Part shown: positions 3,486 through 38,439 of the stretch, one piece after another
Layout of the letters: the number at the start of each line of letters is the position of its first letter
Numbering within the stretch: position 1 is the stretch's first letter
DNA from: an uncultured virus (IMG/VR IMGVR_UViG_3300021092_000027)
Taxonomy: Duplodnaviria > Heunggongvirae > Uroviricota > Caudoviricetes
Virus record (IMG/VR): IMGVR_UViG_3300021092_000027
Strand: one strand, 5' to 3'
DNA: 64,000 bases
Made by a program: the position numbers and the translations under genes
The notes under the pieces: model-generated
Databases searched by the model: none
What the model was told of the DNA's origin: nothing
Seen by the model: only the letters and a program-made list of their open reading frames with translations

Positions 3486-3557
3486 TCGGGGCGACAGGGA
3501 TTGAACCTGTGACCTCTGGTTCCCAAAACCAGCATTCTACCGCTGAACTACGCCCCG
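3486..3557 (-). tRNA. tRNA-Pro(UGG)
   Basis: Cloverleaf CGGGGCG…CGCCCCG-A; anticodon loop TT-TGG-GA; TTCAA T-loop. Confidence 0.95.
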
Positions 3558-3645
3558 TGGCGGAAGTGGTAGGATTTGAACCCACGAACGCTTTCACGTT
3601 GCTTGTTTTCAAGACAAGTGCCTTAAACCACTCGGCCACACTTCC
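3558..3645 (-). tRNA. tRNA-Ser(UGA)
   Basis: GGAAGTG…CACTTCC-GCCA; long variable arm; anticodon loop CT-TGA-AA. Confidence 0.95.
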
Positions 3646-5558: not shown

Positions 5559-5630
5559 TGGGCGATACTGGATTCGAACCAGTGACCCTCTCCTTGTAAG
5601 GGAGACGCGCTACCGCTGTGCCAATCGCCC
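5559..5630 (-). tRNA. tRNA-Val(UAC)
   Basis: GGGCGAT…ATCGCCC-A; anticodon loop CT-TAC-AA. Confidence 0.95.
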
Positions 5631-5706
5631 TGGCGACTCAGGTTGGGGTCGAACCAACGACCGACTGCTTAGAAGGCAGTTGCTCTATCCACTGAGCTAC
5701 TGAGTC
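5631..5706 (-). tRNA. tRNA-Arg(UCU)
   Basis: GACTCAG…CTGAGTC-GCCA; anticodon loop CT-TCT-AA. Confidence 0.95.
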
Positions 5707-5917: not shown

Positions 5918-6111
5918 GCTTGTCCTGGCGGTTGTTGTTCCAGTACGACAACTGGACAAATTTTTGGGCTCTCTATCCATTCCCACCACTCCTCATAGAT
6001 GGCATATAGGTCTTCCGTTCTTCCTACTTGATTTAAATATTCCATTCTGTCACCCGACCACTGCACCAAGTCATCAACCAACTTTTGTATATTAGCTGGA
6101 CGACTTTCCAT
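5914..6111 (-). CDS. Small hypothetical protein
   Basis: 65 aa; AIYEEWWEWIE motif. Confidence 0.65.
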   Translation of the reverse strand: MESRPANIQKLVDDLVQWSGDRMEYLNQVGRTEDLYAIYEEWWEWIESPKICPVVVLEQQPPGQA

Positions 6112-6535
6112 AGTAGTCTTTCCTCATGTATCTACCGAGAATGTTTGAGTTGTAGAATGCAGGAGCACCGTTCAACTCTTCTATCAATACATTATTTAGG
6201 AACAGTTGTTTAGTTTCTTCGTAATTGCAAGAACCTTTTGTTTTATGTAGGCTTATGATCTGTCGTTTGAAGTGTTGCCTTCCGTACTTCTTGACATCAT
6301 CTTTGAGCTCTGGACAGGATCCGTAATATTTTTTCCAATCAGACTCTGACTTAACCTTTCTAGATTTTCCTCTTGGTGTGCGGTAACTCCAGAAATACTT
6401 TCGACCAATATATTTACGATCAGTTTCACTGCAAGTAATAAGATATACAAAACCAAAATAATCTTGAATATCATCTGAACCAAAAACTTTTCCGTTATAG
6501 GTCCAAGGGTTTTCATAGTCAATCAGGATATCCAT
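6092..6535 (-). CDS. GIY-YIG nuclease-family protein
   Basis: GFVYLIT…KYIGRK; WKKYYGS; YNSNI. Confidence 0.8.
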   Translation of the reverse strand: MDILIDYENPWTYNGKVFGSDDIQDYFGFVYLITCSETDRKYIGRKYFWSYRTPRGKSRKVKSESDWKKYYGSCPELKDDVKKYGRQHFKRQIISLHKTKGSCNYEETKQLFLNNVLIEELNGAPAFYNSNILGRYMRKDYYGKSSS

Positions 6536-6665
6536 CATCATCATCTTCACTAAAATAACCAGGATCTGCTTTATAGCTATCTACATCTGCATATACTTCT
6601 ACCTTCAACTCAGCAATTACATCTTCTAGTTCTTCTATCAATTGCTTCAGGCGTCTTTTTTCCAT
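6519..6665 (-). CDS. Small acidic-tail protein (…ELKVEVYADVDSY…DDDDGYPD)
   Basis: 48 aa ORF filling the gap in operon order. Confidence 0.7.
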   Translation of the reverse strand: MEKRRLKQLIEELEDVIAELKVEVYADVDSYKADPGYFSEDDDDGYPD

Positions 6666-6705: not shown

Positions 6706-6858
6706 TTAAAAGTTTTTAAAGTGTTTTTTACCTTTTCTCCTTACAACTCTTCGTATCTCTGGAGGTTCTTTCCTTATTGGAAATTTCCTTTGCTCTGTAA
6801 ATATGCCGTCATTAGTAATCATTCTAGTTAAAACTAATAACTGAATCAACAGTTTCAT
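6706..6858 (-). CDS. Small basic peptide (MKLLIQLLVL…)
   Basis: ATGA-coupled to the upstream ORF. Confidence 0.6.
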   Translation of the reverse strand: MKLLIQLLVLTRMITNDGIFTEQRKFPIRKEPPEIRRVVRRKGKKHFKNF

Positions 6859-6941
6859 CCCAAAGTTGCAATATAGAGTTGTGCTTCTTGAAGTTTTCTT
6901 TGCTTGATGATTTGCTTGCGAATTACATCCAACCAATTCAT
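6855..6941 (-). CDS. 28-aa peptide (MNWLDVIRKQIIKQRKLQEAQLYIATLG)
   Basis: GGAGG SD; ATGA overlaps at both ends. Confidence 0.6.
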   Translation of the reverse strand: MNWLDVIRKQIIKQRKLQEAQLYIATLG

Positions 6942-7099
6942 TTTACTTCCTCCCAGTTCCAATTGTTACATGGACGATAGGAAATACCACGATACTTATT
7001 TGGTGGATGAGATGGAGCATGTGTTTCCGAATACCACTTACGGTACTCTAGTTTTGGAGTGTGAGTATTATACTTAACACCACGATAGGTTGCTGTCAT
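6938..7099 (-). CDS. DUF4278-like peptide 2
   Basis: Two YRG motifs (TYRGVKY, KYRGISY); ATGA-coupled. Confidence 0.75.
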   Translation of the reverse strand: MTATYRGVKYNTHTPKLEYRKWYSETHAPSHPPNKYRGISYRPCNNWNWEEVK

Positions 7100-7236
7100 C
7101 CCTTGGTCCCCTCTTTTACAAATTTGACCCCACGGTAGGTCTCATTATATTGTTGAGGTTGTTGTTGCATTTGCTGTTGGTAGGCGATACGCTTTTCGGT
7201 ATCGTATTCAACGCCACGGTATACTACTTTTGACAT
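7096..7236 (-). CDS. DUF4278-like peptide 1
   Basis: VYRGVEY…TYRGVKF; AGGAG SD directly after the riboswitch-like RNA. Confidence 0.8.
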   Translation of the reverse strand: MSKVVYRGVEYDTEKRIAYQQQMQQQPQQYNETYRGVKFVKEGTKG

Positions 7237-7265
7237 TAGGTTTCTCCTTAATTTTGAGGCTAAAG

Positions 7266-7480
7266 AGCGTTCCTTCAGTCGGCTTTTGCGTCTACTTTGC
7301 ACGTTTTTGGAGAGATCTGTCTGATCTCCCAGATTAAATCATTCTTTACTTGAATGGGAATGTCCTGTTTGTGAATTCTCCCAGCAATTAATTGTGCTTG
7401 TAAGCAAGTTAGAATGAGTGCTTCCATAGATGAACGATCCGTTCCGAGTCGGCTTACTTCCGTCCCATAGGGATGAACGT
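7266..7480 (-). ncRNA. Tandem glutamine-riboswitch (glnA-family)-like RNA
   Basis: Two CGTTC…GAACG P1 pairs; GGAAGTAA and TGAAG junction motifs; upstream of DUF4278 genes. Confidence 0.75.
7275..7427 (-). CDS. 50-aa ORF embedded in the second aptamer (MEALILTCLQAQLI…CKVDAKAD)
   Basis: Uninterrupted frame from ATG 7427 to TGA 7275. Confidence 0.55.
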   Translation of the reverse strand: MEALILTCLQAQLIAGRIHKQDIPIQVKNDLIWEIRQISPKTCKVDAKAD

Positions 7481-7482
7481 AG

Positions 7483-7517
7483 AGTATATATTAGCATAGT
7501 TTCGTATAAAACTATAC
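7483..7517 (-). promoter_or_regulatory. NtcA-type box over the -35 region plus a -10 element
   Basis: GTA-N8-TAC at 7504-7517; TATACT at 7488-7483. Confidence 0.6.
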
Positions 7518-36337: not shown

Positions 36338-38439
36338 GCAATCTGCTCGATAAAGGATGAGAGAATCTTCTTGTTGGACTTCTTGCCGCTCAGGGCTTTT
36401 CTAAATGCACTCTTGATCTGTGCTTTAGACGCATCCTCTCCTACTACAAACTCGGTGTCTGTGTCAAGGCTTTCGTTACGAAGTGCGTAGGAAATGCTGT
36501 ATGCAGTATGTGGATTGATGTAGCAGCGATTCTTCTTCCACTCTTCATCAGCTTGGATTGAGTAGGTACGCCCATAAGGAAGATCGGACATCTTGTAACG
36601 ATTCCATTCACGACCAGAGAGGATTCGAATCGAAATGATCTCACAGTCAGAGAAACGATCTCGGAAGTTTTGCACAAAAGTGCTGGTCTGAGCCCACTGA
36701 TTATGACCAAACTGATAGGTCTTTCCAGTCTTTCTATCGCGAAGCAGACAGTTACCGTAAATAGGATTGCGAATAATCATAGAAGATCCATCACGATAAT
36801 TGCGGACTGACTTACTACGGCACATGGGATGACCCTCACCATCAGTCAGATTAATGATGTGAACCTTCTCGCACTTGTTTTCCTTCTTGAACTTAGGTGC
36901 GATATGGAACATAGATAGCACAGCTTCATTCAACGGAGTGCCAGAAAGATGAAGCTTCCTAGCAACAGGATAGTATGTCGGAAAGTTTGCACGACCTAAA
37001 GTAGCTGCAAGTCTAAAAAGATTGCGGCACTGACGCTCATGCTCGGAGTTGTTGGACTTGCTAGTAAGAAGAGTCAGCATGGAAAAATCTGGATGAATCC
37101 AAATCTTATTTGCCTCTTCATGAGCAAAGTCTCGAAAAGTTTCTGGAGTCCAACCATCACTAAAAGCATACACGGTGTATGCAATACCAACTTTACGGCA
37201 GAATAAAACCAGAGCAATCAACTGCTTGAAGGTAGCAAAGATTGTATCCCGCATAGAACCAGACCAATCAAGGTTAAAGATCAGACCATGGTTCTTGCCC
37301 TGCTGAAGGTTGGTAACCTTCTTGAAGAGATCTTCGTTGTACTTATAGGTATGAAGCTTAGTGCAATCCAGAACACCAGTGCGAGAGGTAGTAGCGCGAG
37401 CATATGAGCTTGCAGACTTCTTACACTCAAACTCTTTCACGAGATAGTTGACTTCCTGGGCACAGTTTTTCTTGAACTGACGATACTCAGAATCTACACG
37501 GTAGAAAGATTCACTACTATCATCATAATCATTTGCTTCCCAGGCACCTTGAATGTGCTCATGGACACGGGAATTGCTAACGATGACTTGGTTCCAATCG
37601 AAGTTCGGAACTTCGAGATAATCAAACAATCCGCCGTTGTTGTCAATCAGATCCTTAACAAAGTCGTTAAAGTTAGAATCAGTCTGAACCTCAACATCAT
37701 CTGCACCATGATCTTCAAAGTCCTGGGATTCCTGCTTGATCTCAGGAGAACGAGAACCAGAAAGATCGGAAGGAGATTCATTAGTACTATCATCTTCATT
37801 CTCCCCATCCTGAGAATCAGAGAAGTCAGATTGAGTAGACTGACCCTGAGATGGTGAAGTGCTCTGAGGAGCATCAGCATCAAGATCTTCTACTTTCTCT
37901 TTGATGGATTCCTTACAGAACTTATAGATAAGCTTTGCAAGCTCAACAGCATCAGCAAAAGTCTCCAGAGAGTTTGCAATACTCACAAACTCTTTTTCCT
38001 CTTCGGAGAAAGGAACGGTAACAAAATTACCAATCTTGAAATGAATGTTCAGACGATCGGCAGTGTTATAGGAACTGAGATCGGAATCACCGATAGAGAA
38101 GAAGTCTTGGTCGCTGAGATCTTTATATCCACGGAAGAAAGTCTTTGCAAGACCAGGATAGCGACGCTTCATCAACTTCTCAACACGAATGTCCTCAGTG
38201 ACATTCACAAATTGAGTAGGAACCTCGCTCTCAAAAGACCAGTCATTAGGAGTGTAGAGAGCATGTCCAACCTCATGCGAGATCAACAAATCAAGAACAT
38301 CATTACTAGCTTTCTTCCACATAGGAAGAGTGAGCACACGAGTCTCTACGTTGAACTGTGCAGTCTCAACCTGTCTGTGCTCAACAATCAGATCCTCTTG
38401 AGCGAGAAGGCGAGCGAGATGGTCTTTGACGTTGTTCAT
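36334..38439 (-). CDS. CobT-like protein with HExxH motif and VWA domain
   Basis: HEVGH; acidic linker; DWSGSM MIDAS, GTPL, LTDGE. Confidence 0.85.
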   Translation of the reverse strand: MNNVKDHLARLLAQEDLIVEHRQVETAQFNVETRVLTLPMWKKASNDVLDLLISHEVGHALYTPNDWSFESEVPTQFVNVTEDIRVEKLMKRRYPGLAKTFFRGYKDLSDQDFFSIGDSDLSSYNTADRLNIHFKIGNFVTVPFSEEEKEFVSIANSLETFADAVELAKLIYKFCKESIKEKVEDLDADAPQSTSPSQGQSTQSDFSDSQDGENEDDSTNESPSDLSGSRSPEIKQESQDFEDHGADDVEVQTDSNFNDFVKDLIDNNGGLFDYLEVPNFDWNQVIVSNSRVHEHIQGAWEANDYDDSSESFYRVDSEYRQFKKNCAQEVNYLVKEFECKKSASSYARATTSRTGVLDCTKLHTYKYNEDLFKKVTNLQQGKNHGLIFNLDWSGSMRDTIFATFKQLIALVLFCRKVGIAYTVYAFSDGWTPETFRDFAHEEANKIWIHPDFSMLTLLTSKSNNSEHERQCRNLFRLAATLGRANFPTYYPVARKLHLSGTPLNEAVLSMFHIAPKFKKENKCEKVHIINLTDGEGHPMCRSKSVRNYRDGSSMIIRNPIYGNCLLRDRKTGKTYQFGHNQWAQTSTFVQNFRDRFSDCEIISIRILSGREWNRYKMSDLPYGRTYSIQADEEWKKNRCYINPHTAYSISYALRNESLDTDTEFVVGEDASKAQIKSAFRKALSGKKSNKKILSSFIEQIA

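Follow-up and report, generated by a model that had tools for sequence, protein, structure and literature searches.

A predicted glutamine sensor of two interlocked aptamer cores, with a small gene in one arm, in the leader of a T4-like cyanophage peptide operon

We analysed a cassette in a 64,000 nucleotide (nt) stretch of DNA from an uncultured virus (IMG/VR record IMGVR_UViG_3300021092_000027). This whole stretch is referred to as the window; its numbering is used for all coordinates, and all features of the cassette are on its minus strand. The cassette is a self-contained promoter-to-terminator unit (approximately 7517-6666) of a T4-like cyanophage. Its leader appears to form one composite glutamine-type sensor, in which a permuted core is nested in a full type-1 aptamer, and one arm of the sensor carries a gene for a small protein with two cysteines. 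We consider it moderately probable that the cassette as a whole is explained by such an interlocked, gene-bearing glutamine sensor, which is repressed by NtcA and has reciprocal outputs. An earlier note on this DNA had described an NtcA-type box, a tandem glutamine riboswitch, four coupled small open reading frames (ORFs) and a terminator. The features it listed are present; the tandem layout and the position of the box in relatives did not hold up, and a fifth gene, nested in the leader, had been missed.

Relatives of the leader were collected from viral contigs by scanning for a 17 nt junction, which yielded at least 120 loci; with three GenBank phages and the window these made up 124 sequences. 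The inner arm was a short hairpin in 64 of them and held a complete ORF of 49-69 codons in 57, whereas three were clipped by the contig end. In a second scan the anchor was the outer junction rather than the linker between the inner strands; it gave 120 loci (61 gene-bearing and 46 compact forms). When genome contigs were scanned for the 17 nt junction, the matches listed were mostly due to chance (five of 120 had a riboswitch context), and no cyanobacterial title was among the matches listed.

CGTTC occurs in the leader at 7479-7475 and 7436-7432, GAACG at 7444-7440 and 7272-7268, and GGAAGTAA and TGAAG, which the earlier note had assigned with these repeats to two CGTTC…GAACG units, are present as well. 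The outer element (Table 1) holds every sequence feature of a type-1 aptamer: P1, P2, ACGGAAGUA, P3 and GAAG. The inner core seems to be circularly permuted and to consist of the hairpin GAACG-GAU-CGUUC, the P2' arm and the junction ACGCAAA, with P3 common to both cores. The two cores were assigned as interlocked, and not as side by side, because the long-range P3 helix covaries: in all 115 loci that are comparable, i.e. have P3 strands of equal length, the innermost pair is Watson-Crick or G-U (TA in 70, GC in 39, AT in 5 and TG in 1). With the nested model 94.5% of the cells were paired in 35 compact relatives, a value reached by none of 500 shuffles, and the P3 pair 41-86 of this set was GC in 12, UA in 8 and AU in 3 sequences and never unpaired. 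The base 5' of CGGAACGG covaried with the base 3' of ACGCAAA (U/A, G/C, A/U), and in the short forms UCG was found with CGA, or UCA with UGA. The covariation of P3 also held in 31 gene-bearing sequences, including the window. In the same 31 sequences the pair at the base of the arm, formed across approximately 140-165 nt, was UA in 16, CG in 10 and UG in 5, with none unpaired. The helix at the base of the arm had a mean of 5.4 contiguous pairs compared with 3.15 when the partners were shuffled. RNAalifold, to which no structure was supplied, paired the 5'-most CGUUC with the 3'-most GAACG and folded the two strands between them into a hairpin.

The second of the two units spans approximately 165 nt because it contains an ORF of 50 amino acids (aa). 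In a leader alignment with five phage records, S-CREM1 had a 20 nt hairpin at this place, whereas the window and the four others had about 140-190 nt. The inner arm of the window is 138 nt long and holds the 50-codon ORF. All 57 complete inserts of the 124 sequences were open from an AUG located 2-5 nt after the second CGUUCAU (61 of 64 inserts were open in the second sample), and the length of the insert changed by whole codons only, from 49 to 69 aa. The stop codon, UGA or UAA, is composed in nearly all loci of the last base of P3 and the first two bases of GAAG or AAAG, and the last residues of the window ORF, DAKAD, are the core sequence ACGCAAAAGCCGAC read as codons. The start codon is within the base of the arm, and the final five codons and the stop are aptamer core, i.e. 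the same nucleotides serve as codons and as sensor pairs.

For 14 unique ORFs with the exact geometry of the window, dN/dS was 0.19 in frame, compared with 0.77 and 2.24 when the frame was shifted, and the other frames carried stops in all 14; across 28 close relatives the median dN/dS was 0.31. The two cysteines were invariant in 51 sequences of the nested ORF. A word-index search with the protein gave 130 clusters, and a profile search gave 344 representatives at E<=1e-3, all of 43-110 aa. These observations indicate that the nested ORF is a real protein-coding gene. Its product is predicted to fold as a helical hairpin (AlphaFold, AF2, with the family alignment; mean pLDDT 83.7, helices 8-20 and 25-37). 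The gene is annotated in GenBank as a hypothetical protein in DSL-LC02, S-SRM01 and P-RSM6. No Pfam, PHROG or NCBIfam family, no named Atlas cluster and no sequence relative in the PDB (best E 0.15) were found for the protein, and no fold match in the PDB for its model (best E 4.8); in BFVD the model matched uncharacterised cyanophage proteins only.

Some related loci differ in their arms. In S-SRM01 (L004:1575-1742) the core has GACGGAAGG in place of GACUGAAGG, consequently the built-in stop is lost and the nested ORF is five codons longer, extending into the region of the anti-Shine-Dalgarno sequence. In 33 unique relatives (L022:672-875, L033:665-868, L065:928-1128 and 30 others) an ORF of 59-69 aa is also found within the outer P2 arm. 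The outer-arm ORFs have two invariant cysteines and often a signal-peptide-like N-terminus; some of them stop at the UAA within the conserved AAGUAAG junction, and some loci have ORFs in both arms. Profile comparison (hhalign) joined the two families of arm ORFs with 96.6% probability (E 5e-10) and with cysteine aligned to cysteine; the two families are homologous. In environmental contigs of relatives (runs X1 and X2) a hairpin of approximately 20 nt replaces the gene-bearing arm at window 7291-7440, thus both forms of the arm co-occur in the same samples. The contigs of relatives from X1, a metatranscriptome, cover 7076-7483 and nothing upstream of 7484, and those from X2 (kind unspecified) continue further. 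The coverage of the X1 contigs was not used as evidence, since the data are from one study only, starts cannot be read from contigs, and DNA may be present in the library.

The Shine-Dalgarno (SD) sequence of the first DUF4278 peptide is predicted to pair with the bases directly after outer P1. An aptamer followed by an anti-SD/SD hairpin would correspond to the layout postulated for the glutamine-ON switch of gifB (PMC6212724). From this architecture we infer the following chain of events. In a nitrogen-replete host NtcA would be off the box that replaces the -35 element, and the cassette would be transcribed. Glutamine would fold the sensor and pull C7267 and its neighbours from the anti-SD helix, as postulated for gifB; with the SD released the coupled DUF4278 peptides would be made, whereas the start of the nested gene would be buried in the folded sensor. 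At low glutamine the sensor would be open and the nested gene translated, and the ribosomes on this gene, which have to unwind P2', P3 and J3/1, would prevent the sensor from closing. The nested protein and the DUF4278 peptides would on this view be reciprocal outputs. In its strict form this would be a two-output translational toggle, approximately 210 nt being both glutamine sensor and two-Cys coding sequence, with binding of the ligand and passage of the ribosome mutually exclusive; we put this forward tentatively, as possible rather than probable. If it is true, one small protein is made at low host glutamine and the DUF4278 peptides at high, and aptamer arms are a regular home for regulated phage genes, with either or both arms encoding one protein superfamily.

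Two considerations weigh against reciprocal outputs: the argument for them comes solely from the overlap between codons and pairs, and a ribosome terminating at 7277-7275 could expose the SD, so that the peptides would be turned on along with the nested gene. The latter is the core of the main rival explanation, in which the sensor would mainly gate initiation of the nested gene, termination at the UGA (7277-7275) would melt P3, outer P1 and the anti-SD helix and free the SD 26 nt downstream, and all products would rise and fall together. In accord with this, the stop lies within the core and the anti-SD begins 8 nt after it, the ORF fills the whole arm and takes its stop from the core in 57 loci, the S-SRM01 ORF, lacking the core stop, runs on into the anti-SD region, and the downstream genes are themselves ATGA-coupled. 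However, 64 of 121 relatives have the same platform and no nested gene, therefore the platform appears to work without a ribosome, and we regard this explanation as unlikely.

As stated in the earlier note, a GTA-N8-TAC box is found at 7517-7504, at the -35 position, and TATACT begins 15 nt after it. The whole window has 17 such boxes compared with 8.9 +/- 2.9 expected, a number reached by one of 100 shuffles. Conservation was counted in the 107 related loci that have 80 nt of upstream sequence. In 85 of them the 80 nt preceding the aptamer contained the box (background for the same loci 0.024 per 80 nt), 46 had the fuller form TGTA-N8-TACA, and several of the box-less loci had an N7 variant in the equivalent place. 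The box is conserved in related phages, but only nine loci, including the window, S-CREM1 and DSL-LC02, have it in the same position, starting 38-39 nt before CGTTC. None of these nine has a -35 hexamer, the box occupying its place. In another 59 loci the distance from the start of the box to CGTTC is 57-62 nt, about 20 nt more than in the window. In 57 of these 59 there is a TTGnnn, a spacer of 16-18 nt and a TAnnnT ending 5-10 nt before the aptamer; these 57 have a complete promoter of the sigma-70 type, and the box immediately precedes its -35.

The promoter scan of the window returned TTTATA-16-TATACT with nine of 12 matches. TATACT as the -10 would start the RNA inside P1, and with TAATAT as the -10 the start would be at approximately 7481-7480. 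The centre of the box would be at -30.5 for a start at 7480 and at -41.5 for one at about 7469, both starts being hypothetical. NtcA sites located at about -41.5 are activating, those over the -35 or the -10 repressing. Repressing sites have been described at -30.5 (gifA of Synechocystis), -28.5 (gifA of Anabaena) and -7.5 (gifB) (PMC6316151); if transcription starts near 7480, the box of the window has the position of the repressing gifA site. Eight of the 107 loci (L006, L010, L041, L092 etc.) have, besides the distal box, a second exact GTA-N8-TAC, which starts 19 nt before CGTTC and overlaps the -10; covering of the -10 suggests repression. In the distal-box loci (L013, L012, L009 and most others) the -10 is in the loop of a short inverted repeat, approximately 10-30 nt upstream of the aptamer, whose arms vary between loci yet stay complementary (GGTC..GACC, GAGTC..GACTC, GTGTTA..TAACAC). 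This repeat, which may be an operator or a hairpin, is absent from the window. Predicted NtcA sites, 1-16 per genome, have already been published for cyanomyovirus genomes (PMC3037559).

Repression has to be weighed against the facts that in most relatives (59 of 107) the box is clear of the core promoter, and that the spacing seen in the window is limited to nine; with its centre at about -50.5 the distal box would not evidently repress. The box could instead activate. NtcA-activated promoters have a -10 of the form TA-N3-T at a characteristic spacing, and in the window sequence TACGTT (7481-7476), 22 nt downstream of the box, fits this geometry. Transcription under nitrogen stress would in that case begin at about 7470, within the outer aptamer, and a leader of this kind could not sense glutamine. 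The absence of a -35 hexamer from all nine loci with the box in this position would be expected for an activator-dependent promoter, and NtcA promoters of cyanomyoviruses have been proposed to drive genes under nitrogen stress (PMC3037559). On the other hand, TA-N3-T is kept at this place in only five of the nine loci, TACGTT is the conserved 5' end of the aptamer and may fit by chance, the full promoters of the 57 distal-box loci, which end shortly before the aptamer, speak against activation, and the second box over the -10 in eight loci suggests repression. We think activation improbable. The gifB-like two-input logic proposed in the earlier note gains from the aptamer, the anti-SD/SD layout, the DUF4278 products and the box in 85 of 107 loci, and is weakened by the rarity of the window's box position (nine of 107) and by the activating spacing, which also fits.

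The interlocked fold itself faces several contrary observations. All four P1-type strands are invariant, and covariation cannot assign the partners of the CGUUC and GAACG strands; side-by-side pairing of P1, with P3 as a kissing helix, would be compatible with such strands. P3 keeps two conserved A.C mismatches. The inner core is a putative glutamine site, and its junction ACGCAAA departs from the consensus. The Rfam scan for glnA and Downstream-peptide RNAs, which the earlier note had asked for, gave no glutamine-family match in the window at gathering score: RF01739 (glnA) reached 34.0 bits (cut-off 35) at 7481-7436, and RF01704 (Downstream-peptide, glutamine-II) 15.9 bits (cut-off 33). We attribute the sub-threshold scores to the interlocked, gene-bearing build; the RF01739 model cannot span the 138 nt insert. 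Even with a purpose-built nested covariance model (R1) only 7481-7371 was found in the window, and the 3' half was mis-aligned. Weak Rfam rows for Yfr10, NsiR1 and PyrR proved to be the terminator hairpin, and the other GAAGGAACG sites of the window, at 38009 and 54192, were rejected as aptamers.

In a plain side-by-side tandem two independent aptamers would make the dose response steeper, and the ORF would occupy a variable loop that tolerates inserts. In Rfam the stretch 7481-7436 is aligned as one unit, and the second unit of S-CREM1 is aligned at 33.5 bits; both are below the gathering threshold. The original seed alignment has separate glnA RNAs of about 47 nt (PMC2864571, supplementary file 5), and a review by the Breaker laboratory counts 157 doublets as pseudo-cooperative (PMC9481103). 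Read as a tandem, however, each unit lacks one junction strand, unit 1 the GAAG and unit 2 the GGAAGUA. Of the local two-pair P3 hairpins that this reading needs, one was unpaired in 17 of 26 sequences and the other in 15 of 23, whereas the helix between the units covaries, and the linker between the inner strands is fixed at 3-6 nt (119 of 120 loci of the second scan). Independent tandem aptamers are thus a poor explanation, to which we give little probability, and the riboswitch of the earlier note appears to be of the glutamine type as claimed, but interlocked. That the nested ORF is untranslated and conserved as RNA structure only, in favour of which one can cite the lack of a canonical SD upstream of the AUG at 7427 and the fixing of the ORF ends by RNA pairs, is hardly credible in view of the frame-specific dN/dS and stops, the whole-codon length changes, the invariant cysteines, the profile match with the outer-arm ORFs and the confidently predicted fold.

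Table 1. Features of the cassette (positions in the window; J, junction; MFE, minimum free energy)
Feature	Position	Strand	Evidence or remarks
GTA-N8-TAC box (predicted NtcA-type site)	7517-7504	-	exact match; 85/107 loci, this spacing in 9
-10 candidates TAATAT and TATACT	7493-7488 and 7488-7483	-	sequence, promoter scan; without -35 hexamer
Whole interlocked double glutamine aptamer (putative)	7479-7268	-	motifs, covariation, RNAalifold
Outer P1, 5' strand CGUUC	7479-7475	-	pairs with 7272-7268; invariant in 35/35; RNAalifold
Outer P2 hairpin UCCC-UAU-GGGA	7473-7463 (7473-7470 with 7466-7463)	-	4/4 pairs changed on both sides in relatives
Outer J2/3 (CGGAAGUA of ACGGAAGUA)	7462-7455	-	agrees with RF01739 consensus
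P3, 5' strand AGCCGACU	7454-7447	-	pairs with 7284-7277
Inner P1' hairpin GAACG-GAU-CGUUC	7444-7432 (7444-7440 with 7436-7432)	-	MFE fold, RNAalifold
Inner P2' arm	7430-7291	-	base closed by 7430-7426 with 7295-7291
Nested 50-aa two-Cys ORF	7427-7275	-	stop UGA 7277-7275 is last P3 base and J3/1
Inner junction ACGCAAA	7291-7285	-	ACGCA invariant in alignments A2 and A6; supplies C-terminal DAKAD codons of the ORF
P3, 3' strand AGCCGACU	7284-7277	-	covariation with 7454-7447
Outer J3/1 GAAG and outer P1 3' strand GAACG	7276-7273 and 7272-7268	-	sequence motifs
Predicted expression platform: anti-SD CUCUUUAG (7267-7260) with UUAAGGAG (7251-7244)	7267-7244	-	8-pair hairpin, MFE and centroid folds
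46-aa DUF4278-like peptide, two YRG motifs	7236-7096	-	Pfam 20.5 bits (25.3 required); phrog_5049 E 1.3e-12; 101/125 loci
53-aa DUF4278 peptide, two YRG motifs, ATGA-coupled	7099-6938	-	Pfam 29.8 bits (25.3 required); phrog_5049 E 1.3e-8; 18/125 loci
28-aa ORF, ATGA-coupled	6941-6855	-	phrog_545 positions 1-24, E 1.3e-4; 14/125 loci
50-aa fourth ORF, ATGA-coupled, unsupported	6858-6706	-	0/125 loci; no family match
Intrinsic terminator	hairpin 6700-6671, U-run to 6666	-	-18.7 kcal/mol, z -4.03; 1/200 shuffles as stable

The four ATGA-coupled ORFs of 46, 53, 28 and 50 aa noted earlier were all found, with overlaps at 7099-7096, 6941-6938 and 6858-6855, and so was the terminator, which a simple terminator scan had missed because its stem is bulged. 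The paired YRG motifs are present in both ORFs that had been ascribed to DUF4278 (PF14105), but only the 53-aa ORF passes the gathering score, the 46-aa ORF falling short of it. The YRG peptides match only positions 1-38 of the 57 of the DUF4278 profile; they had no NCBIfam match and no PDB relative at E<=1, the IF7 model and sequence being outside this comparison. DUF4278 forms the N-terminal part of IF17 and has been called dispensable for IF17 function (PMC6316151), which leaves the suggested action of the peptides on glutamine synthetase unsupported. For the fourth ORF neither the 125 related loci nor a collection of 50,697 phage records contained a homologue, and it had no Pfam, PHROG or NCBIfam match. 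S-CREM1 has a single 48-aa product (L001:1636-1782), whose C-terminal part is homologous to the 28-aa ORF, and the first half of phrog_545 matches the 28-aa ORF and its second half the YRG peptides; depending on the phage, the small genes of this kind are either joined or separate. In DSL-LC03 a terminator directly follows the homologue of the 28-aa ORF.

The closest DNA relatives of the cassette are T4-like cyanophages of the Kyanoviridae (DSL-LC03, DSL-LC02, S-SRM01, S-CREM1 and P-RSM6), any one record covering at most 51% of a 1 kb query. In the records of the relatives the cassette is preceded by the gene for the small subunit of ribonucleotide reductase; in the window a long ORF (9142-7922) is at the equivalent place. 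Downstream of the cassette there is a 48-aa ORF matching phrog_878. Just 3' of the cassette lies a segE-type GIY-YIG homing endonuclease (6092-6550, minus strand; PF19835, 179.5 bits), which may have to do with the different cassette tails of close relatives. A wcaG RNA (95.9 bits) and four tRNA genes were found at 2605-2702, 3486-3645 and 5559-5706, all on the minus strand.

Glutamine riboswitches of T4-like cyanophages are already in print (PMC9964418, PMC9602691, PMC9004378), and their tandem occurrence, the link to DUF4278 and the control of the host genes by NtcA are known. In the accessible literature (including PMC9481103, PMC2864571, PMC6212724, PMC9964418, PMC9004378, PMC9602691 and PMC12379486; some supplements aside) no description of a nested ORF or of an interlocked fold was found, and the fold with shared P3 and the gene within an aptamer arm are to this extent new. 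Riboswitch aptamers have been treated as non-coding and doublets as independent, whereas hundreds of cyanophage contigs differ in that the two cores have one helix in common and a probably translated gene runs through the ligand-binding core. Such RNAs offer a natural system for studying the competition between ligand sensing and translation on a single molecule. We propose that the expression of an uncharacterised two-Cys family of 344 representatives is linked to the nitrogen status of the host during infection of cyanobacteria of global importance, and the NtcA box in two promoter layouts is a testable case of a virus re-wiring the nitrogen regulator of its host.

Among known systems the nearest is gifB of Synechocystis sp. 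PCC 6803, which encodes IF17 (Klahn et al. 2018, PMC6212724). It shares with the window a GTA-N8-TAC at the core promoter, a type-1 aptamer, an anti-SD adjoining P1 and a DUF4278-containing product downstream, and the proposed logic would be alike, i.e. expression only when nitrogen is plentiful. According to the gifB model, the ribosome site is blocked by a short helix, which melts on glutamine binding (PMC6212724). In contrast to gifB, which has a single aptamer, the element of the window is phage-borne, has two cores on one P3 and carries a gene in its arm; its products, of 46-53 aa, cover only the DUF4278 part of IF17, and most of its phage relatives have the box upstream of a full promoter.

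The catalogued glutamine-I doublets (Weinberg 2010, PMC2864571; Sherlock et al. 2022, PMC9481103) have the same sequence motifs, and, judging from the supplementary alignment of PMC2864571, many catalogued glnA units are evidently halves of this very element. In these catalogues they are independent, side-by-side, pseudo-cooperative aptamers, whereas the covariation described here supports one interlocked fold. The compact element of S-CREM1 (OP535465, PMC9964418), annotated as a glnA riboswitch, has the same 38 nt box spacing, the same cores and platform and the same first peptide; it differs in that its inner arm is a 20 nt hairpin without a gene, and that a single product fuses the YRG part with a part resembling the 28-aa ORF. 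Glutamine-II RNAs (RF01704), which precede DUF4278 genes of marine picocyanobacteria, share the ligand class and the downstream peptide family, and the inner junction ACGCAA of the window resembles their CGCAG junction, but the score of the window was far below the cut-off, as given above, and the pseudoknot layout was not found in it. The tandem glycine riboswitch is a functional likeness rather than a relative: it too has two cores with inter-domain contacts and one expression platform, but its fold and ligand are different, its cores are side by side and not nested, and there is no coding sequence inside.

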